Positions 2,423 to 32,522 of a DNA stretch of 64,000 nt are shown here, one piece after another. This DNA comes from a virus. The first letter of the stretch is position 1. Every line of letters begins with the position of its first letter. The notes below the pieces were generated by a model. That model was not told where the DNA came from. It saw nothing but the letters and a program-made list of their open reading frames with translations, and made no database searches. A program made the position numbers and the translations under genes. The stretch covers positions 1 to 64,000 of IMG/VR virus record IMGVR_UViG_3300045988_083604; one strand, 5' to 3'.

Positions 2423-3061
2423 ATGAAATTAGCATCACATAACAGTTTAAGTTTTGTAAAACCATATAGTTGGTGGGAGAAATTAATAAATTTTACATCA
2501 AAGTGCCAATCACTTGATATACAATCACAATATGCAAATGGAGTACGTTTATTTGACATGAGATTACGTAGAAAGTGGATTTCTTGTTGTTCGCATGACT
2601 ATGATGCAATAGCTGCTCACGGATTAATAGAATATAGAAGCATTGATGTTTCCAATACATTGTATTATCTTAACAGCAAATCAACAAAAGATGATCCTGT
2701 ATATATACAATTAAATCTTGAAAATCTTAAGTCTGACGGAGATAGAGATTATGTATGGTTTGAAGAATTATTTAAAGAATGCTCAGAGCGTTATCCAAAT
2801 CTAATATTCTGTGGAGGATATGCTAAACACCCATGGCGTAAGATCATAGATTGTGAAGATCCTTCTATATGTCAAAAGAATTGGGAATTTTTTAATTATA
2901 AAGATCAACCTACTACACGAAAAAAGATAAAGTGTTTCTTTTCAAATTTATTACACTTTTCCCCAAAATACTGGGCTAAAAAGAATAATCAAAAATATAA
3001 ATCTGATGGTACGTCTGCTGATTTCTTAATGTTAGATTTTGTACAATATGGGGACATTTGA
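2423..3061 (+). CDS. hypothetical protein; possible PLC-like phosphodiesterase fold
   Basis: ORF track; SHNS...GVRLFDMRLR resembles the catalytic region of the PI-PLC X domain; by eye only. Confidence 0.35.
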   Translation: MKLASHNSLSFVKPYSWWEKLINFTSKCQSLDIQSQYANGVRLFDMRLRRKWISCCSHDYDAIAAHGLIEYRSIDVSNTLYYLNSKSTKDDPVYIQLNLENLKSDGDRDYVWFEELFKECSERYPNLIFCGGYAKHPWRKIIDCEDPSICQKNWEFFNYKDQPTTRKKIKCFFSNLLHFSPKYWAKKNNQKYKSDGTSADFLMLDFVQYGDI

Positions 3062-3581
3062 TTTCTTAAAAGCTGTAAGTTTAAATGCTGTATTATATTA
3101 TGCAGATTACTTAAGTTTATATTATACTTCAATACCTGTAACAGATACGTGTAAATATTTTATAATTTATGGGACACCAGTGAATGCTGCATATATGGAT
3201 GGACATTCTCCTATATATGATGAAAATAATCAATATTATAAACAAGCATTAGACGAATTATATAACATTCAAGCTAAAACAGGTAGATCCGGTATGATTT
3301 CATTCTTACAAAATTTATGCAATGTATTTGCTAGAGGATGTGTTAATGGAGAACAAATGTTAGATTGTATATTATATTATAAATCAAAGCGTGAAAAGAA
3401 AGATGCTAGAGCCAAATATAAAAACTATGTATCTAATATACGATATGAGCTACAACAAGAAGAAGACGGCGAATTGTACACCGTAGAATGTACAAAATAT
3501 GTAAAACACAACGGTATCAAACCTAATTACGATGACTGCGAAAAAATTAATAGATTATTTAAAGGATCCTTAGATGATTAA
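3039..3581 (+). CDS. hypothetical protein, 180 aa
   Basis: ORF track; tightly packed in a co-oriented gene array. Confidence 0.6.
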   Translation: MYNMGTFDFLKAVSLNAVLYYADYLSLYYTSIPVTDTCKYFIIYGTPVNAAYMDGHSPIYDENNQYYKQALDELYNIQAKTGRSGMISFLQNLCNVFARGCVNGEQMLDCILYYKSKREKKDARAKYKNYVSNIRYELQQEEDGELYTVECTKYVKHNGIKPNYDDCEKINRLFKGSLDD

Positions 3582-3592
3582 AGCAATAAAAG

Positions 3593-3814
3593 ATGCAACC
3601 AAAAGAGAAAACAAACGTTATAGATCAGGCGACTACAACATCTCTGATTACACGGGACAAAGTGGTGAGATATGACTTCCAAGGTTGGCCAGAATACCAA
3701 ATAAGGGTTATAGATCTCTTAAAAGTATTAAATATCCCAATAGATAATATATCTAAAGATATATTAGAAAAGCATATAGAAGTACTTGAAGATGATGGGA
3801 TGGGCTATGCGTAG
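3593..3814 (+). CDS. hypothetical protein, 73 aa; terminates at TAG
   Basis: ORF track; stop codon TAG at 3812..3814. Confidence 0.5.
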   Translation: MQPKEKTNVIDQATTTSLITRDKVVRYDFQGWPEYQIRVIDLLKVLNIPIDNISKDILEKHIEVLEDDGMGYA

Positions 3815-3864
3815 AAGACGTATAAAGCTGTAGATTGTGGAATAGATAATGATAAAATAAATAT

Positions 3865-4767
3865 TTGGATATGAGACTTATAAAATCTAATGTAGAACAA
3901 ATAAAACAGAAAAAAGGTTTATCCGGCATTAAAAAACAGATAGAAATAGCTGGTAGAACATGTTATAAATCTGAAGATAAAATAACAAATAAAAGCTGTG
4001 AAGAGTTTGTACAACGTATGATAAATTCAGGTCATACTGCGATGTTAGAGCATGGGACAGTATATTTAACAGTACCTGCAGAAGATGCAAACAATGGTTA
4101 TAAATATTCATTTAATAAGTATTCTAAAGTTAATTTTGACCCTACAGGTAAAGATACTAATATATACGTAACTACAAACTATAGAGTTATAACTGAAAAC
4201 AAGTGGGAAGATGACCTTAAATACCTTACAGAACCTACAAAAAACCACGAAAAACGTCTCACATTCCGTATAATATGTGATAGAATTACATCACAATCAA
4301 TAGTACGACACAGAGTTATGTCTTTCGCACAAGAATCTACAAGATATTGTAATTATGCCAAAGATAAATTCAACAGTGAGATAACATATGTAATTCCAAC
4401 ATGGTTAGAAGATAAATTACCAGAAGGTCAATATGTAGAATGGGATGGTGATTGGTGTGATATTGAAAAATTCACAATACAACATCATATTGACAACAGC
4501 GTTGAAAATGAATTTGTACAAACATTACAAAATTCAGAGTATTCATACATGTATTTCATAGAAAATGGATGGAAACCACAGCAAGCACGTAGTGTTCTCC
4601 CAAATGCCTTGAAAACAGAGATAATTGTAACTGGATTTATATCAGATTGGCTTAGATTTATAGCCATGAGAACAGCTCCAAATGCTCACCCAGACATACA
4701 AAAATTAGCAAATATAATATTGACAGATAAAGAGATTAAAAAGTATATAATAACAGATAAAAAATAA
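3865..4767 (+). CDS. thyX: FAD-dependent thymidylate synthase ThyX
   Basis: ThyX signature RHRxxSxxxxSxRY present as VRHRVMSFAQESTRY; probable ATG at 3871. Confidence 0.85.
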   Translation: MDMRLIKSNVEQIKQKKGLSGIKKQIEIAGRTCYKSEDKITNKSCEEFVQRMINSGHTAMLEHGTVYLTVPAEDANNGYKYSFNKYSKVNFDPTGKDTNIYVTTNYRVITENKWEDDLKYLTEPTKNHEKRLTFRIICDRITSQSIVRHRVMSFAQESTRYCNYAKDKFNSEITYVIPTWLEDKLPEGQYVEWDGDWCDIEKFTIQHHIDNSVENEFVQTLQNSEYSYMYFIENGWKPQQARSVLPNALKTEIIVTGFISDWLRFIAMRTAPNAHPDIQKLANIILTDKEIKKYIITDKK

Positions 4768-6702: not shown

Positions 6703-6780
6703 TGCCTCTTAGCTCAAAAGCCAGAGCCTCACAGATGTAATATCATGCGAGAGATGATGGTTCGAATCCATCAGAGGTAA
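6703..6780 (+). ncRNA. tRNA-like element with canonical acceptor, D and T arms but no 7-nt anticodon loop
   Basis: Acceptor tgcctct/agaggta (U1-A72); D arm gctc-aaaagcca-gagc; T arm gatgg-ttcgaat-ccatc. The 27 nt in between fold only into an irregular extended stem. Confidence 0.4.
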
Positions 6781-14183: not shown

Positions 14184-14467
14184 AGAATCTTAGAATCAGA
14201 CACTTATTTGCCAAACAGTTCGTATAAGTCGCAAATGGGTCGCGTCGATGATGGCGTTTTTAATGAATTGACATTAGCACAAAGAATCTTAGAATCATGT
14301 GGGAAGAAGACTCTCAACGTAGGGAGAATAAACTATACGTACACAGATCAAACAAATAACATTTGTGAACCATCGAGTCGTTTATTCTAAGATCACGTGA
14401 GGTGTAAGGAATAACCAAGTGTACTGTCAAAGTGTCAAGTTTATGACGTTCAAGAATCTCAGAATCA
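14184..14467 (+). repeat. three direct copies of the 15-mer AGAATCT(T/C)AGAATCA
   Basis: Copies at 14184-14198, 14283-14297 and 14453-14467 in ORF-free DNA; partial inverted copy near 14384. Confidence 0.7.
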
Positions 14468-14664
14468 GAACATTATCATAACAACATATTTAGTATATTA
14501 AACAGATATATCGAATCATATTACTACGAAGATTAAGAGTAGCTAACTTATGATTCAAAGTATATGCTGAGACAAACATTCTGTTTAATCTACCTAAGTA
14601 TATAGAATCTGATCAATTCTATATACTACAAAATGAAATCGTTTGAGTATGAGTTAATTATGTA

Positions 14665-14693
14665 GGACGAGGGTTCGAATCCCTCCACGTCCA
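14665..14693 (+). ncRNA. acceptor/T-arm minihelix (tRNA top-half mimic)
   Basis: ggacg-aggg-ttcgaat-ccct-cca-cgtcc-a; no matching distal 5' acceptor strand found upstream. Confidence 0.35.
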
Positions 14694-14857
14694 CTCTTGT
14701 TTATATATAAGGGCGTGACCGGTTTTGACTGCATAAGGAAGTAAATACGAGATTTCAGAAATCGATAAATCAGAACAATAACATTGTTGACTATACTCAC
14801 GTAGCGTGAGTATGAGTCCTGACAATTCCTTGAGTCAGTTGGAAAAATAGGATGGTT

Positions 14858-21400: not shown

Positions 21401-22009
21401 ATGGACAATAACAATGTAAATATCAATGTAAGATTAGTGGAAGACAATCGAGTAAATATCAGTAGTTTTGGTTCGCTTTATGGTAAGCGAATCTTTAAAG
21501 CAGTCAAACTCTCATGTGATCTTGACTTCCAAAAGCGTCTTCGTGACGCAAATGAGAATAATGGACTTGTAACCAACCGTGCTCCGCTGCGTTATAAGAT
21601 CGTACCTATTGACATAGTAGGTCTTGATCTTGACAAGGACGTTGACGGAACTAATGTAATTGTGATCAATAAGGGTCGCAAGGACGAGGCTGGTGAGTCT
21701 ATTGAGGTTCGTTGTCCAATTGACAACGAGAAGTTCACAAAGGATGTTACAACTGAGACTGTAACAGACGCGTTGAACAAGAAGGATTTTATTACTACAT
21801 ACTTCGCAAACGCAAAGAAGCTTGCTGAGGCACTGAATCCTGCAAATGCAACAGAGATGAACCGTATCGATGCTCTCATTCGAGATCTTGAGAAGCAGCG
21901 TAAGATGATCCAGGATACATTCGATAAGAATATTTCTGGTGTAAACGATTACTACCGTCAGCTCGATCAGAAGAAGAGCGAGGTACATGTAAATGTAACA
22001 GTTGACTAA
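21401..22009 (+). CDS. hypothetical protein, 202 aa, GC-richer codon usage
   Basis: ORF track; antisense shadow ORFs; stop overlaps the next start. Confidence 0.65.
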   Translation: MDNNNVNINVRLVEDNRVNISSFGSLYGKRIFKAVKLSCDLDFQKRLRDANENNGLVTNRAPLRYKIVPIDIVGLDLDKDVDGTNVIVINKGRKDEAGESIEVRCPIDNEKFTKDVTTETVTDALNKKDFITTYFANAKKLAEALNPANATEMNRIDALIRDLEKQRKMIQDTFDKNISGVNDYYRQLDQKKSEVHVNVTVD

Positions 22010-22536
22010 TGAAAAAGATTAGCCTTAAGAGCAAACTACAAATACAAATTCTTTTTTTGGACCCGACGATCAAACGGAACCTGATTGACGAGTCTAAAAA
22101 AGAATTATATAGTCGAATTACTATTAATGATGACGGATCTATCACTTTTGGAAAGACAGGGTGTCTTTGGTGGAATCGTCTTCTTGGTGATGAAATGACT
22201 ATATCTTTTGCAGATTTTGCAATTAAAACTGTAGCAGCTCTTGCAGGACAGGAACGTAATATCAACGATGTGATACTCAAAGGCTTGAGTGAGGAGGTAA
22301 TACGTAATGCTGTAATGCAAGATAAATACGACATGGTAGTCGATCGTTTATTTGATGCCGCAAGGTATGGTGTTAAAGGTCCTCTAAATACTGAGGGCTT
22401 CTCTGTAAGTGATAAAATAGATAAACACATTAAAATTGAAACCAAAGATGGTGTACGAGTAGCACGCTTGCCGGGATCAGGCGATCCCTTGTGCGAAATC
22501 AGAGTTGGTGTCAAGGGTGTTGATTTTTATGAATAG
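22009..22536 (+). CDS. hypothetical protein, 175 aa; terminates at TAG
   Basis: ORF track; a long antisense shadow ORF 21876..22514 was rejected. Confidence 0.6.
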   Translation: MKKISLKSKLQIQILFLDPTIKRNLIDESKKELYSRITINDDGSITFGKTGCLWWNRLLGDEMTISFADFAIKTVAALAGQERNINDVILKGLSEEVIRNAVMQDKYDMVVDRLFDAARYGVKGPLNTEGFSVSDKIDKHIKIETKDGVRVARLPGSGDPLCEIRVGVKGVDFYE

Positions 22537-22631
22537 TTATTTTGTAGGTTAAACAGGCGTTTGATTACAAATCTTACATACTATTATATATTCACTTTAG
22601 TGTTGGGGCACATAGTACCCCGACTCAATTA

Positions 22632-23158
22632 ACCTTCATGGCGGAATTGGTAGACGCTTTGGACTTATTAAACCTTAGTAATAAGGAATTTGAGTGCCCT
22701 ATGAGAAATCATAGGAGTAGAATCTCCCTAATCAAACAGTTGCTATGAAATCAACTGCGACAGAAGCCTCGCTTATGGTGACATAAGCTTTGGTGATGAC
22801 GAGCTAAATTGAAACAATATAAAATGATTAGTATTTCCCGAGACCGGTCAAGAAATATTAATAAGTTTGAATACAAAGTTTTATAATTCATAAATGTGTA
22901 GAGACTATAGAGGAGATGCCTAAGTTTAAGTATACAAATATGTATTACTTAAATATGGTAATAAAATAGTCCAGACCACAAAAACTTACATGAAAGGTAT
23001 TTCACTATAATCATTACTAAATGTGTTAAGTACTGTAACTTCATGCTAGCGTTGAACGTAATGAGTAGGACGTAAGTAAGTTTGCTTGTGTAAAAGCAAG
23101 TGTGGTAAGAAAATCCAATGACCATACGGTCGTGCGGGTTCGATCCCCGCTGGAGGTA
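22632..23158 (+). tRNA. tRNA-Leu(UAA) interrupted by a group I intron between anticodon positions 34 and 35
   Basis: 5' exon accttca-tg-gcggaattggtagacgc-t-ttgga-ctT. 3' exon AAaa-tccaa-tgaccatacggtcgt-gcggg-ttcgatc-cccgc-tggaggt-a. Acceptor 7 bp, anticodon stem ttgga/tccaa, class II variable arm gacc-atac-ggtc. Confidence 0.85.
22667..23109 (+). ncRNA. group I intron, about 443 nt, without an ORF
   Basis: Follows U34 and ends in G. R-like gtgtagagactatag (22896-22910) and S-like aatagtcc (22965-22972) give P7 gacta/tagtc. GUAA-capped hairpin cctta-gtaa-taagg near the 5' end. Confidence 0.75.
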
Positions 23159-23218
23159 CGATATTTTAGGAAACATTATTATTTATTATTACTATTTATT
23201 ATTTTGTTGAGTTTGTAA

Positions 23219-23249
23219 CTCTTCGGTTTGTGAAAATAGAAGAGTTTTT
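23219..23249 (+). terminator. conserved-loop hairpin plus T-tract (family member 4)
   Basis: Stem ctcttc/gaagag, loop ggtttgtgaaaata, then ttttt. Confidence 0.6.
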
Positions 23250-23250
23250 A

Positions 23251-23335
23251 CGGTGTGTTACAACAATCAAATAATCATTTGTTTACTGTTTCTCAATTTT
23301 GTAGGTAACATGAGGTGCAAGTCCTCACACACCGA
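23251..23335 (+). ncRNA. 85-nt tRNA-like element with an irregular anticodon arm
   Basis: Acceptor cggtgtg/cacaccg 7 bp; D stem acaa/ttgt with a 15-nt loop; T arm tgagg-tgcaagt-cctca; the central arm has a 10-14 nt loop containing ttCTCaa. Confidence 0.35.
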
Positions 23336-23395
23336 CTAGGTAAACGATTTTTTTCAAATTCATATCAATATGTTTAATTTAAATCAAATCGAAAT

Positions 23396-23950
23396 ATGAA
23401 TAAGAACAAATCAATGAAATTAAGCTCAAAGGATATCATTATTGCTCGTGATAACATTTGTAAGACAAAGACAAAGTATTGGCGTATTATACGTTCAGAG
23501 AACGTTATAAGTAAGAAGGCTAAGGCAGCCGGAATGGGTTCAGGTTTTGACCTAACACAATTGCATAATGAGATTCTTCAAATGTCTAATACACTCATTA
23601 AGATTAAACTTATGTTAAATGCTATTAATAATGGCATTAAGGAGTTTAACTTTGAGGAGGCTAAGAAGACACATTATTATACAATTTACGCAGCTTGTGA
23701 GAAGAAAGAGCAACTTGCACATTGGGAAGAGATTCTCAAGAAGAGTACAATTAATCCAGCTACGAAAGCTAAAGCTGGAACAAAGGGTACTGGAAAAATA
23801 GAGACGTTTACATCAGCTAAGATTACTGCAATAAAGAAGAAGTTGCAGCTTGAGATAAACAAGCTTGATGCTGATATTGCTAAGTTTAATAATGAGGCAA
23901 GTCTCGAAACATCAGATATTGATGATATTAAGCATTATTTTACAGCTTAA
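23396..23950 (+). CDS. hypothetical helical protein, 184 aa
   Basis: ORF track. Confidence 0.6.
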   Translation: MNKNKSMKLSSKDIIIARDNICKTKTKYWRIIRSENVISKKAKAAGMGSGFDLTQLHNEILQMSNTLIKIKLMLNAINNGIKEFNFEEAKKTHYYTIYAACEKKEQLAHWEEILKKSTINPATKAKAGTKGTGKIETFTSAKITAIKKKLQLEINKLDADIAKFNNEASLETSDIDDIKHYFTA

Positions 23951-24101
23951 ATAACATATAAATGCCTTATGAATATGGTCAGCACATAGATGCACAGGGT
24001 CGGGTCCTGTTATGGCAACAATTAAAATAAGACGATTTAAGCATATATAATATTATTCTGGATAGTTTTATCATCAGAGTAATTAAAACGCGTTAAAACG
24101 C

Positions 24102-29079: not shown

Positions 29080-30652
29080 ATGAGCGGTTTTATATTACCT
29101 ACACAACCAATTCCAGCAGTTTCAACAAATCCTAAATTTTTAATTTTATATGGTCGTCCTAAAGCAGGAAAGACTAGTGCATTAGCACAGCTTCCTAATA
29201 ATCTAATTATAGATTTGGAAGGAGGATCACAATTTATAGACGCAATGGCAGTACAAGCCAGAAGTGTTGGAGATTTAGGAGAAATTGCACAAGCAATCAG
29301 AGCTAAAAACTCTGAAACAAAACATAATTTTTATAAGCATATAACAATAGACAATGCTACTCGATTAGAGGAGATGTGTTTACCGTATGCAAAGACACTC
29401 TGTAATAATGGAGCTTTAAATAGAAATATTTATAGAAAATTCCGTGAATTGCTGGAACCTCTTTCATTTGTCATAATATATAACAATAAGAAAGAAAATC
29501 AGCAGCATTTATGAAACAAGAAACTTTAAAAAAGTATATTGGTAAAACATGGGGTGTTTTAACTTGTTTAGGAATCGATCATGAAGATTACGATAAAGAC
29601 AAATAGAGAAAAAGAACATATTTTAAAGTAAAATGTTCTAGATGTGGTTCTGAATCTGTAGTTAGAGCTGATCGTTTCTTTGGAACATATGTTCCAAAAT
29701 CATGTACACATTGTGTAAATGATTTACAAGTTGAAACAGCAAATAAAAAGTATCCTAAAAATAGAAGATTATTAAATTCAAGAATATCAAAATACACACA
29801 TATAAGCAACAGAAAAGGAAAAACAGTAAAATCTTACTTATCAAAAATTGAAGCAGAAAAATTGCTTACTTCTAAGTGTTTTTATTGTGGAAAAGAAAAT
29901 GCAATGGGAATAGACAGAATAGATTCATCTAAAGATTATACTTTAGATAATTGTGTTTCGTGTTGCGGAATGTGTAATATTATGAAGAATAAATTTGATA
30001 TTGATGAATGGTTTTCTAAAATAGGAGAAATTTATAGAAATCATGTTGATAGATGTTCAACGACTATCTCGAAAGAGAGTACATCACAAGTTAATGGTGA
30101 TGGAAGTGCGGAACTTCTGACTGCCGCATAGGTAAAAGAAGATGATATAGTCTATTCTGCATAGTGATATGCAGCAGTTCATAAGAGAACGTATATAGTG
30201 TTACGAACTATATAGAATATAAAGATATGCAAACACCAATGGGAAAGAACTACAAAGGAGACGATGTACGTACTTTACCAAATGGTTCTGGATATATGTA
30301 TCTAAGACAAGCTGTACGCAAAGTTTTAGATATGTTTAAGAGTCTTTGTGATGAATTTATTTTAATTGGACACGTGAAAGATGTTCAAATAGAACAAAAC
30401 GGAGAAGAGCTTAATCAGATGGCATTGGATCTTGTTGGAAAACTAGGATCTATTGTATGTGGTGAAGCAGATGCTGTGGGATATGTTTATAGAAAAGGTA
30501 ACGAAACTCACATAAGCTTTAAAGGCGGTGATGGTACCATTAAAGAAGCCAGAGCACCTCATCTTAGAGGCAACGATATTGTTATCGCAACTGGTAATGA
30601 AGATGGAACTATTACTACTTATTGGGACAGAATTTTTAAATCAGAAAACTAA
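29080..30652 (+). CDS. Sak4-like AAA_24 ATPase (RecA-like), split gene: join(29080..29401,30225..30652) gives 249 aa
   Basis: Exon 1 has Walker A YGRPKAGKTS, DLEGGS and Walker B ITIDNAT. Exon 2 continues the family (ILIGHVKD...). The proposed splice keeps the frame (322+428=750 nt) and gives the junction AKTL-Y-MQTPMGK. Confidence 0.7.
29402..30224 (+). mobile_element. group I intron (about 823 nt) carrying an HNH homing endonuclease gene
   Basis: 5' exon ends in U and the intron ends in G. P1 cucU/Ggag with a U-G wobble (29398-29401 with 29410-29413). R element gttcaacgactatc (30055-30068) and S element aagatgatatagtc (30139-30152) give P7 gacta/tagtc. P9-like hairpin ctgcata/tatgcag. Confidence 0.75.
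29511..30131 (+). CDS. intron-encoded HNH endonuclease, 206 codons with one in-frame TAG at 29604..29606
   Basis: Hand translation: the frame is open from ATG 29511 to TAG-free stop TAG? no, to stop at 30129..30131, except for one internal TAG. C-terminal CFYCGK...IDRID...NCVSCCGMCNIMKNK HNH core; the ORF track shows only 29862..30131. Confidence 0.65.
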
Positions 30653-30660
30653 TAGAAGAT

Positions 30661-31251
30661 ATGTTTAGTACTAAAACAGCTGTATTTGACAGTTCAAACA
30701 AATATATGAACGCCGGTATTAATGACAACGTAACTCTTAAAGAAGTAAATGTCTTGAAATCTCCAAACGGGCGTGATTACCTTGAGATAATATTTGAGGA
30801 TGCTGATGGAGCAATAGCCTCTCTTACAGAGTGGAAAAATGAGAAGAATGCGTGGATTAAAACTGATGAAGAACGTCAAAATCGTGATAATCAGCAATTC
30901 GGACGAATGCTTCAAATTCTCAAATGTTATTTTGAAACTATTGAAGATGTAGAACTTAACACATTTGTCGATATGATAACATGGGTTAAGAGTAAACTTG
31001 ATACTGTAATAAGTGGAAAGAAGCTTCTACGTCTTAAAACAACATACGATAACAAAGGTTTTATTCGTGTATCAACTTATGGTATATTTGTAGAACCAAT
31101 GGATGTTGAAGAAACTCAGATAGTATTAACAGGTCGTGATAAGACAGTACGACCAGAAATAAAAGTAGATACTGAAATACCTACTAATCTGCTTGGTAAT
31201 ACCACTCCAGACAATACTATTGAAGCAGTAAAGCGCGATCTACCGTTTTAA
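30661..31251 (+). CDS. hypothetical protein, possibly ssDNA-binding
   Basis: ORF track; position between the recombinase-like ATPase and the primase; acidic C-terminal tail; weak inference. Confidence 0.35.
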   Translation: MFSTKTAVFDSSNKYMNAGINDNVTLKEVNVLKSPNGRDYLEIIFEDADGAIASLTEWKNEKNAWIKTDEERQNRDNQQFGRMLQILKCYFETIEDVELNTFVDMITWVKSKLDTVISGKKLLRLKTTYDNKGFIRVSTYGIFVEPMDVEETQIVLTGRDKTVRPEIKVDTEIPTNLLGNTTPDNTIEAVKRDLPF

Positions 31252-31538
31252 TGTAGATCTGGTGGAGCGTTGACTCCAGTCAACTAAGAATGGTAAATAT
31301 GAACTATGGGAGGATCGCAACCTCCTACCATTCCACATGAAGCTCTATAAAGTCGACGTGAGGAGCAACGTAACACACAGGTTTTCTAATCGATGTAAAT
31401 CTAGCCCTGTTTCCAAGCGTATCTTGGATGTGTTCTGACACATGTGTGTATGTCAGGGAGAATGGCACAATTGCAAAGGGTGCATAGAAAGTTCGATTCT
31501 TTCCATTCTACATATATTTAGAGCTAAAAGCCAATAAT
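31252..31538 (+). ncRNA. ORF-free structured region ending in a T-arm-like hairpin, upstream of the primase gene
   Basis: Hairpins gaatggta/taccattc enclosing ggagg-atcgcaa-cctcc; ccaag-cgtat-cttgg; ctgaca/tgtcag; T-arm-like gaaag-ttcgatt-ctttc followed by cattcta. Confidence 0.3.
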
Positions 31539-32522
31539 ATGTATAGTACAAAAAAAGCTACAATTGATACATCTTTACGAGATATCATAGAGATGTTAGA
31601 CGATTACGATATCTACTCATATTATATCGGATCTTTTAAAATAAATAAACTTATGAATAGTCCTCTACGCAATGATGATAGAAATCCATCATTTGCAGTA
31701 TTTGTAGGACGAGAAGGTCGTTTGTTTTTTAAAGATCATGGCAGTGGAGTAGGTGGAAACGCTATAACGTTTGTAAAAACTATTTGTAATATACAATCAA
31801 AAGAAGAATTAGAAAAAGAACTTCTAAGGATTTTGCGAAAACAGAATCCTAATAAAGTAAAAAGGGTTAATATAAAGAAATACGAATCTGCTCACAATAC
31901 TGTAATTGGTATTGCTAGACAACCGTTTACTAATACTGATTTACAGTATTGGGGGCAGTTTCATATTTCTAAATCTACTCTTGACAAATACCGTGTTTTT
32001 AGTATAAAATATTTTCTTTGTAATGGAACCGTCAGAGGAGTCTACAAAGAAACCTGTCCTATGTATGCGTATAAAGTGTTCGATAGATTTAAAATTTATA
32101 GACCTTTAGCTTCCAAGTATACTAAATGGCGTTCTAATCTGACAAATTACGACGTTCAGGGGCTTGCTGAAATACCTCAGGGAGGAGGCGATCTTCTCAT
32201 CATTACAAAATCTTTAAAGGATGTAATGACTCTATATGAGATGGGATACAATGCTATTGCTGCATCTAGTGAAACAACATTCATTCCGGATGAGATATTG
32301 AATAAACTTCAAACAAAATGGAAGACAATTCTCATTTTATATGATAGAGATGTAACAGGAATGAAAAAAGCTAGAGATTATAGTAGAAAATATCATTTTG
32401 ATGCATTTTTTATTAATAAGAGATTTAAAGCAAAAGATATTTCAGACGCGGTAAAAAATAATTCTTATAATGATGTAAAACAATGGTTAAATAAAGAATT
32501 ACGACGTTATGACAACCTCTAA
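31539..32522 (+). CDS. DNA primase (DnaG/TOPRIM type)
   Basis: Degenerate zinc-binding region SPLRNDDRNPSFAVF; TOPRIM-like LLIITKSLKDVMTL and LYDRDVTG. Confidence 0.7.
   Translation: MYSTKKATIDTSLRDIIEMLDDYDIYSYYIGSFKINKLMNSPLRNDDRNPSFAVFVGREGRLFFKDHGSGVGGNAITFVKTICNIQSKEELEKELLRILRKQNPNKVKRVNIKKYESAHNTVIGIARQPFTNTDLQYWGQFHISKSTLDKYRVFSIKYFLCNGTVRGVYKETCPMYAYKVFDRFKIYRPLASKYTKWRSNLTNYDVQGLAEIPQGGGDLLIITKSLKDVMTLYEMGYNAIAASSETTFIPDEILNKLQTKWKTILILYDRDVTGMKKARDYSRKYHFDAFFINKRFKAKDISDAVKNNSYNDVKQWLNKELRRYDNL

Follow-up and report, generated by a model that had tools for sequence, protein, structure and literature searches.

A group I intron of IC3-like build in the tRNA-Leu(UAA) gene of a crAss-like phage, at the classical site, and a widespread phage lineage of retargeted relatives

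Group I introns of tRNA genes were recorded only from cyanobacteria, alpha- and beta-proteobacteria and plastids in a 2014 survey, and all phage introns observed so far were stated to lie in protein-coding genes, despite the many tRNA genes that phages carry (Hausner et al. 2014). In crAss-like phages they have been reported from the MCP, PolB and primase genes (Delta/Zeta group), not from tRNAs (Yutin et al. 2021; 2023 Crassvirales review); as the introns in the former study were found through endonuclease domains, tRNA introns lacking an open reading frame (ORF) were not reported there. Lak megaphages were described as having "enigmatic" tRNA introns, and phage tRNA introns were then called previously unreported; these elements are 80-115 nt long, follow position 37 of tRNA-Tyr, tRNA-Phe, tRNA-Thr or tRNA-Gly, comprise tRNA-like pieces and gave "no hit in rfam" (Devoto et al. 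2019). Here we analyze a 64,000-nucleotide stretch of DNA from a crAss-like phage (positions 1 to 64,000 of IMG/VR record IMGVR_UViG_3300045988_083604; hereinafter the window), in which positions 22632-23158 hold a class II tRNA-Leu(UAA) gene made of two exons and a 443-nt insert. We consider it very likely that this phage tRNA gene is functional and that the insert between its U34 and A35 is an IC3-like group I intron without an ORF. An earlier note on this DNA had proposed a group I intron here and had regarded the feature as undescribed in such phages; in agreement with the latter point, our searches of the open-access literature turned up no previous account of such introns in the tRNA genes of phages.

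The insert follows U34 and splits the anticodon as U|AA (Table 1). With introns allowed, a run that the earlier note had suggested, ARAGORN called the unspliced DNA as tRNA-Leu(taa) i(36,443), and default ARAGORN recognized the exons spliced in silico as a canonical 85-nt class II tRNA-Leu(taa) with a D arm, a 7-bp acceptor containing one G-U pair, an anticodon stem UUGGA/UCCAA bearing the loop CUUAAAA, a variable arm GACC/GGUC and a T arm GCGGG/CCCGC; CCA is not encoded in exon 2. Both calls bear out the note's description of an interrupted but complete class II tRNA-Leu(UAA) with a 443-nt insertion at U34/A35, and its expectation that standard scans would overlook the gene also held, since default ARAGORN and the Rfam tRNA model at its gathering threshold both missed it. 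UUA is the commonest leucine codon (39%) in the long ORFs of the window. The insertion point U34|A35 of tRNA-Leu(UAA) is that of the cyanobacterial and plastid tRNA-Leu intron, a position reportedly described in 1990 by Xu and coworkers and by Kuhsel and coworkers. Like the latter intron (Anabaena PCC 7120; subgroup IC3), the window copy interrupts the loop CUU|AAAA of the same gene, contains no ORF, displays a U•G pair at its 5' splice site and a terminal G, pairs its guide with GGACUU / AAAAUCC, and has R and S cores of the GCAGAGACU ... AGUCC type. It differs in that its host is a phage of Bacteroidota-type gut communities rather than a cyanobacterium or plastid, in its length of 443 nt against about 250 nt, in its additional P1 hairpin, pre-P4 hairpin and long P6 and P9 arms, and in belonging to an intron family that also occupies other tRNAs and an ORF.

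Window positions 22000-24000 were compared with GenBank phages, and IMG/VR was scanned with a 17-mer of the core and with a looser pattern. Within the compared interval the insert is the only part with close matches: it is 93-95% identical, in blocks, to the spacer between two coding sequences (CDS) annotated as "DNA primase" in IAS virus, and about 90% identical to the same primase spacer in cr116_1 (both Steigviridae); every Lak megaphage has a region that matches it at about 89% identity. The 17-mer recovered about 30 further copies and the looser pattern 7 short, more divergent ones, and in all about 40 homologues of the intron (loci with L numbers below) occur in gut-phage contigs. Their host genes and splice junctions, established from ARAGORN and direct reading, are: 1) tRNA-Leu(UAA), at the same 34/35 point, in 24 distinct sequences; 2) tRNA-Lys(UUU), interrupted after position 34 as CUU|UUAA, in two copies (L041 3319-3843, minus strand, and L008 13067-13670); 3) a tRNA-like gene with the loop CUCU|AAC and anticodon CUA, a putative amber suppressor, in four copies (L105 3249-3496, minus strand, and also L106, L107 and L109), where a 228-nt member of the family lies in ~100-kb contigs of crAss-like size and ligation would give the loop CUCUAAC; 4) a class II tRNA of unclear identity in one copy (L110); and 5) a primase ORF in six copies, one of them partial. 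The tRNA-Leu exon/intron arrangement is the same in more than 20 independent phage contigs with differing tRNA-Leu sequences, a recurrence far beyond chance. ARAGORN labeled some homologues 'Phe(gaa)', 'Stop(tta)' or 'Ser/Pro', which we rejected as an artefact of its choice of splice point; once the U|...G| boundary rule is applied, most of these are Leu(UAA).

The Lak phages provide a composite case: the tRNA-Leu(UAA) gene of Prevotella phage Lak-C1 (L003 2153-2885) harbors two group-I-type introns, one in the D loop (2174-2481; Rfam Intron_gpI 41.8 bits, E = 5e-9) and one in the anticodon loop (2497-2836) that belongs to the family of the window intron, and removal of both yields a canonical tRNA-Leu(taa) by default ARAGORN. 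The published Lak introns likewise lie in phage tRNA genes, and the Lak genomes also carry the window's family in tRNA-Leu(UAA), but the published elements do not belong to group I, and the table of Devoto et al. 2019 has no entry for Leu(UAA). In L108 (~150-650) a related tRNA-Leu intron contains in its P6 an HNH endonuclease-like ORF, recognized by motif (CQTCGC...HIDGD...CPNCH), with two in-frame TAG codons. Separately, the P9 arm of seven copies (L022, L026, L032, L012, L015, L017 and L035) includes a ~105-nt tRNA-like module (GGCGGAATTGGTATACGG ... AAGGGTTCGAGCCCCTT), which ARAGORN accepts only as a tRNA with a 25-nt intron and whose first ~30-60 nt, the extent of the extracted regions, recur downstream of tRNA-Leu in L040 and L042. 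An exact scan of 596 Gb of cellular genome contigs with the 17-base core returned 58 matches, which is the chance level, and as an exact-match scan is a weak test; among them only L087 has an S element and a tRNA, and it is a probable phage contig binned with a Clostridium metagenome-assembled genome. This weak test thus gave no evidence for the intron family in cellular genomes.

The homologues also supply evidence for removal of the insert at the predicted boundaries. All copies are bounded as U|...G|, and the boundaries are base-exact in more than 30 loci. When the 599 nt between ...AGACTT and AAAATT... are deleted from IAS virus, the result is a single 329-aa primase ORF, joined between codons 190 and 191, and its alignment with the uninterrupted primase that the window encodes (~31596-32456) is gap-free over the junction. 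The anticodon stem of the tRNA copies has its halves in separate exons, and these are perfectly complementary in seven versions (UUGGA/UCCAA, ACAGA/UCUGU, AGGGA/UCCCU, UCAGA/UCUGA, AUGGA/UCCAU, GAGGA/UCCUC and AUACA/UGUAU). Such co-evolution across the intron is expected only if the exons join in one RNA, and it therefore supports real splicing; to judge from these sequence patterns, the window intron itself is likely to be spliced. The Anabaena intron is reported to depend on the anticodon stem of its exons (Zaug et al. 1993). The same observations bear on the notion that the 443 nt are an unrelated insertion, for instance a small mobile element or the gene for some other structured RNA, which inactivates the tRNA and carries R- and S-like motifs by coincidence. 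It could draw on the lack of any Rfam family for 22667-23109, and on the doubtful calls that ARAGORN with long introns also makes at 14238-14694 and 30444-31511, which have no R/S core and are probable false positives. We nevertheless regard it as very improbable, given that the insert has no terminal repeats and no transposase, that its relatives always begin after U and end in G at exact boundaries, that guide sequences match the exons, that one family member passes the Rfam group I threshold, and that excision restores both the primase frame and a canonical tRNA.

The matching of guides to exons extends to all host contexts. In tRNA-Leu, P1 pairs ACUU with GAGU and P10 pairs AAUUU with AAAAU; the primase copies have the same P1 and a P10 of AAUUUU/AAAAUU (6/6 positions); in tRNA-Lys the pairings are CACUU/GAGUG and UAA/UUA; in the suppressor-like tRNA they are GCUCU/GGAGC and GGU/ACC; and L110 has a P1 of GUCU/GGAC. 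This re-specification of P1 in five contexts, and of P10 in four, is the behavior that would be predicted of a group I internal guide sequence. As regards the splice-site pair, 25 of the 31 alignable rows have U•G, 5 have U-A and one has C-G; direct reading gives U-A in L021 alone, so the other non-U•G counts are probably register artefacts. In that copy (L021 473-968, minus strand) the guide has A in place of G opposite the splice-site U, which is unusual for a group I intron.

We tested the predicted structure on an alignment (A1) of 36 distinct homologue sequences, covering 66 pairs in 15 helices. Standard pairs occupy 92.5% of the cells, against 32-42% when the partners are slid by 1-3 columns, and 34 of the 66 pairs show double-sided changes; the covariation score is 0.259, compared with 0.117 in shuffles, none of 500 of which reaches it, and 0.03-0.055 in the slid controls. 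Double-sided changes occur in 7/7 pairs of P2, 6/7 of P5a, 3/4 of P9b, 3/6 each of P3 and the optional pre-P4 hairpin, 2/5 each of P4 and P10, and 1/5 of the P9 closing helix (C-G to U-A in 12 sequences). The hairpin within the P1 loop also has a compensatory form, ACCA-GUAA-UGGU, in L005/L032. A model-free minimum free energy (MFE) fold of the intron alone recovered P2, P3, P4, P5, P6, P8 and P9 at -105 kcal/mol (z = -4.6), and this fold, together with the covariation, upholds the assignment to group I in the earlier note. The core helices P3-P8, with P4-P6 and the P3/P7 pseudoknot, follow the canonical group I order; J4/5 and J5/4 have 3 A-rich nucleotides each, and neither the alignment nor the MFE fold has helices between P2 and P3 or between the 3' strand of P3 and P8, so that P2.1 and P7.1/7.2 are lacking. 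The core reads GUGUAGAGACUA ... AAUAGUCC, with the R element GAGACUA at 22901-22907, where an A is bulged between G22901 and GACUA, and the S element AAUAGUCC at 22965-22972; these elements and the terminal G23109, all pointed out in the earlier note, are invariant in the 36 homologues. Altogether the GAAA L2 loop, CCUAAG/UAUGG, GAGACUA/UAGUCC and the omega G are without variation; the invariance of P7, the P8 receptor, the GAAA loop and the omega G is typical of a catalytic core, which they presumably form, and is silent on pairing. The 5' splice site is placed at the wobble U22666•G22692 within ACUU/GAGU. No protein family was detected among the ORFs inside the window intron, of which those of 46 and 75 aa on the minus strand have no Pfam match. 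Taking the hairpin CAGUUG/CAACUG as P4 was rejected, since it is missing in the Lak, L018, L020 and L105-L111 copies, which keep CGACA/UGACG together with P5 and P6; other copies have long insertions at this hairpin.

Table 1. Positions of the tRNA-Leu(UAA) exons and predicted intron elements in the window, and of the split primase genes in two phages with related introns
Feature	Position	Strand	Remarks
tRNA-Leu(UAA) exon 1	22632..22666	+	ACCTTCATGGCGGAATTGGTAGACGCTTTGGACTT; acceptor 5' strand, D arm, anticodon stem 5' strand UUGGA, C32, U33, U34; ARAGORN on spliced and unspliced sequence
P1 5' strand (exon ACUU)	22663..22666	+	pairs with internal guide sequence GAGU
Insert (intron)	22667-23109		443 nt; starts after ...GGACTT; final bases ...GGTAAG
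P1 extension hairpin CCUUA-GUAA-UAAGG	22673..22686	+	GNRA loop; inside P1 loop; optional in family; in MFE fold
P10 guide GGAAUUU	22685..22691	+	pairs with exon 2 AAAAUCC at 6/7 positions
Internal guide sequence GAGU (P1 3' strand)	22692..22695	+	
P2 hairpin CCUAUGA/UCAUAGG	22698..22715	+	GAAA tetraloop 22705-22708, invariant in 36 sequences
P3 5' strand AUCUCC	22722..22727	+	pairs with 22912-22917; recovered by MFE
Optional hairpin CAGUUG/CAACUG	22737..22757	+	between J3/4 and P4; 100% paired
P4 5' strand CGACA	22758..22762	+	weak helix, A·A mismatch; pairs with 22797-22801; in MFE fold
P5 (GCC/GGU) and P5a GCUUAUG-GUGA-CAUAAGC	22766..22794	+	P5a 99.6% paired
P4 3' strand UGACG	22797..22801	+	
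P6 and long variable extension	22804..22896	+	closing pair C22804-G22896 invariant
J6/7 and P7 5' strand (R element)	22897..22907	+	UGUAGAGACUA; invariant in 36 sequences
P3 3' strand GGAGAU	22912..22917	+	pseudoknot with P7
P8	22919..22958	+	base CCUAAG/UAUGG, invariant columns
J8/7 and P7 3' strand UAGUCC (S element)	22959..22972	+	J8/7 UAAUAAAA; invariant
P9 domain	22975..23106	+	closing helix ACCAC/GUGGU (22975-22979 with 23102-23106), variable P9a
P9b terminal hairpin CUUG/CAAG	23085-23100		within P9 domain
Terminal G (omega G), 3' splice site	23109	+	invariant in 36/36 aligned homologues
tRNA-Leu(UAA) exon 2	23110..23158	+	AAAATCCAATGACCATACGGTCGTGCGGGTTCGATCCCCGCTGGAGGTA; A35, A36, anticodon stem 3' strand UCCAA, variable arm, T arm, acceptor 3' strand, discriminator A
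Split primase, IAS virus (L001)	2428-4016		two separate CDS in RefSeq; spacer is the unannotated intron
Split primase, cr116_1 (L002)	2428-4019		two separate CDS in RefSeq; spacer is the unannotated intron

This core also bears on whether the insert might be removed by a protein endonuclease/ligase pathway, in the manner of archaeal and eukaryotic tRNA introns, rather than by a ribozyme. The reported Lak tRNA introns are short, lie at 37/38 and have no Rfam match, and hence a non-ribozyme route may exist in such phages. The window insert, however, lies at 34/35 and not at 37/38, shows no bulge-helix-bulge motif at its boundaries and possesses the full conserved group I core; moreover, bacteria are not known to possess the tRNA splicing endonuclease, and we judge such a pathway extremely unlikely here.

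With respect to subgroup, the compact build without P2.1 and P7.1/7.2, the GAAA L2 loop and the 11-nt receptor in P8 resemble features of the Azoarcus and Anabaena introns, and the term IC3-like is used in this sense of resemblance. Presumably, the Azoarcus tRNA-Ile(CAU) intron (IC3; crystal structure 1U6B) shares with the window copy an identical GUGUAGAGACUA block and UAGUCCAG, the GAAA tetraloop of P2 and its CCUAAG/UAUGG receptor in P8, and in both P4-P5-P6 is simple and P9 compact; we take CCUAAG/UAUGG at the base of P8 to be the 11-nt GAAA-tetraloop receptor motif. The two differ in the tRNA and the loop position that they interrupt, in the AT-rich and much longer sequence of the window intron, and in P4, which is a strong, 7-bp, GC-rich helix in Azoarcus and has 5 positions with mismatches here. 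An alignment to Azoarcus and Anabaena sequences agreed loosely with this resemblance, served as a lead only and was not used as evidence. The group I introns of phage protein-coding genes (td, nrdB and sunY of T4, and those of crAss-like phages) are likewise phage-borne and mobile; indeed the very same lineage as that of the window intron splits the primases of IAS virus and cr116_1, and a relative carries an HNH ORF, whereas the window copy lies in a tRNA gene.

Several observations weigh against this interpretation of the locus. P4 is short and irregular, with 76% of its cells paired and an A·A mismatch in the window copy; in its support, the closing pair changes from A-U to G-C in 8 sequences, and the mismatch is repaired in L023 (CGUUA) and L034 (UGUCG). 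A hairpin between J3/4 and P4 is non-standard for group I introns, and P1 has only 4 contiguous pairs. Further, no intron-less allele of the window tRNA-Leu was found at the syntenic site, where cr131_1 has no tRNA and Dulem virus 42 has a tRNA-Thr, or among phage tRNA-Leu(UAA) genes; intron-less genes of the latter kind with a continuous GGACTTAAAATCC are common (at least 120 loci), and none is close to the window exons. Finally, the Rfam group I model RF00028 gave no match, at its gathering threshold or at E <= 10, in 801 nt searched around the window copy, and none for the 340-nt Lak copy. The earlier note had stated that failure to fit a group I covariance model would refute the intron; the window copy, unmatched at E <= 10, formally fails in this way, and short members of the family do match: L110 (226 nt) scores 56.0 bits (gathering score 50; E = 1e-13), in an alignment that assigns P1-P9 in the same way as by hand, and L105 (228 nt) scores 21.3 bits (E = 0.0028). 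L110 is 59% identical to the window copy over 238 positions and all core blocks are common to the two. Rfam's single group I model is known to miss many group I introns. As the window copy has ~200 nt of peripheral insertions and an irregular P4, we read its miss as a problem of sensitivity and not as evidence against group I membership.

The same features could indicate that the insert is a true group I intron that is unable to self-splice, either because it needs a protein cofactor from the phage or the host or because it is a decaying copy, with the tRNA-Leu effectively a pseudogene. The weak and mismatched P4, the failure of the general Rfam model on the window copy, the long AT-rich peripheral insertions, the lack of a maturase or endonuclease ORF in the window intron and the U-A pair of L021 are all compatible with this. 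On the other hand, the blocks of the catalytic core are invariant across 36 distinct copies, compensatory changes keep the helices, the exon halves co-evolve across the intron, and an essential primase gene that houses the same element has kept its reading frame intact around it. Taken together, these features point to ongoing selection for accurate removal, and we hold an intron incapable of self-splicing to be improbable. The best-supported function is that of a selfish but splicing-competent intron, presumably catalytic, inside a useful phage tRNA.

By analogy with known group I chemistry, splicing of the window intron would proceed as follows. In the folded precursor, the exon bases ACUU would pair with the guide GAGU to form P1, with U•G at the splice site, and an exogenous guanosine bound in P7 would attack after U22666. 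G23109 would then take the place of this guanosine in the pocket, and GGAAUUU would hold exon 2 in P10, such that the 3'-OH of exon 1 could attack after G23109, ligating the anticodon loop CUUAAAA and releasing the intron. As in the Azoarcus intron, docking of the GAAA loop of L2 with the receptor in P8 probably stabilizes the fold.

Beyond splicing, the intron very likely belongs to a mobile lineage that circulates among crAss-like phages, larger phages and Lak megaphages of the gut. It occupies similar short targets, GACUU|AAAAU, in tRNA-Leu and in the primase ORF, and guide changes in the tRNA-Lys and suppressor-like tRNA copies match their different targets. The tRNA-Leu and primase targets share (G/A)(G/A)ACUU|AAAAU, and the window phage and IAS virus have no other detectable shared DNA in this region, against 93-96% identity in the intron blocks. 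The copies are mosaics: the P9 arm of the window is 95% identical to that of IAS virus over 163 nt and its P6 arm 88% identical to that of cr116_1 over 186 nt, and the pre-P4 hairpin and P8 arm differ. In cr116_1 an HNH endonuclease gene lies directly downstream of the split primase. Within the window, positions 29970-30221 (plus strand) are 82% identical to the HNH endonuclease gene of crAss-like phage cr53_1 and possibly encode a free-standing homing endonuclease ~7 kb from the intron. Spread could have occurred by reverse splicing or by endonuclease-assisted homing. More tentatively, and with odds that we place below even, a promiscuous ribozyme lineage of IC3 type might spread among unrelated gut phages (Suoliviridae-like and Steigviridae crAss-like phages, 140-230-kb phages and 540-kb Lak megaphages), retarget itself via small changes in guides of 4-7 nt, and move between tRNA anticodon loops and a primase ORF (Leu-UAA, Lys-UUU, the CUA suppressor-like tRNA and the primase site GACUU|AAAAU), a natural case of ectopic transposition by reverse splicing. 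As part of the same speculation, splicing could time or license phage translation, as the intron would gate the maturation of phage tRNAs, including that of the putative amber suppressor of phages whose late genes are TAG-recoded.

As regards the phage itself, the window has a GC content of 32%, and 20 kb of it match Suoliviridae crAss-like phages and Dulem virus 42 at ~72% identity in their polymerase/helicase/primase region. On the minus strand, 35422-63849 contains short ORFs under the standard code, and reading through TAG produces ORFs of 1854, 5461, 635, 718 and 808 aa, which implies that the late genes are TAG-recoded. Its source is hence a gut crAss-like phage with TAG-recoded late genes; the tRNA-Leu gene lies in the plus-strand block of standard code, and ARAGORN with introns allowed found no suppressor tRNA in the window. 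Other small RNA features were seen on the plus strand: 1) a two-piece tmRNA-like gene at 14634-14809 (Rfam tmRNA_permuted, 63 bits; gathering score 47), which ARAGORN does not report and inside which a doubtful 'tRNA-Ser i365' (14238-14694) ends; 2) an odd tRNA at 6703-6780 (Rfam 39.7 bits) with 16 nt in place of the anticodon loop, which ARAGORN with introns calls as Asp(atc) with a 7-nt intron; and 3) a hairpin followed by a T-run at 23217-23250, after tRNA-Leu (AACTCTTC-GGTTTGTGAAAATAG-AAGAGTTTTT), which was missing from the output of a simple scan for terminators. In L008, L087 and L105-L109, too, tRNA genes are followed by hairpins of a similar kind, whose loop is CGTTGTGAAAYGCG.

The observation is thus real: a group I intron of IC3-like build occupies the classical site of tRNA-Leu(UAA) in a new type of host, a crAss-like phage, and belongs to a widespread, retargeting phage lineage. 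Long copies of this intron family escape the Rfam group I model, and because standard tRNA scans miss such genes, phage tRNA inventories and the codon-supply analyses based on them are undercounted. With the window locus and its ~40 relatives, tRNA genes of phages come to hold an IC3-like intron at the ancient tRNA-Leu(UAA) site, which reopens the question of the origin and movement of the tRNA-Leu(UAA) intron. The near-identical copies at look-alike targets in a tRNA loop and a primase ORF constitute a natural data set on the retargeting of these elements.

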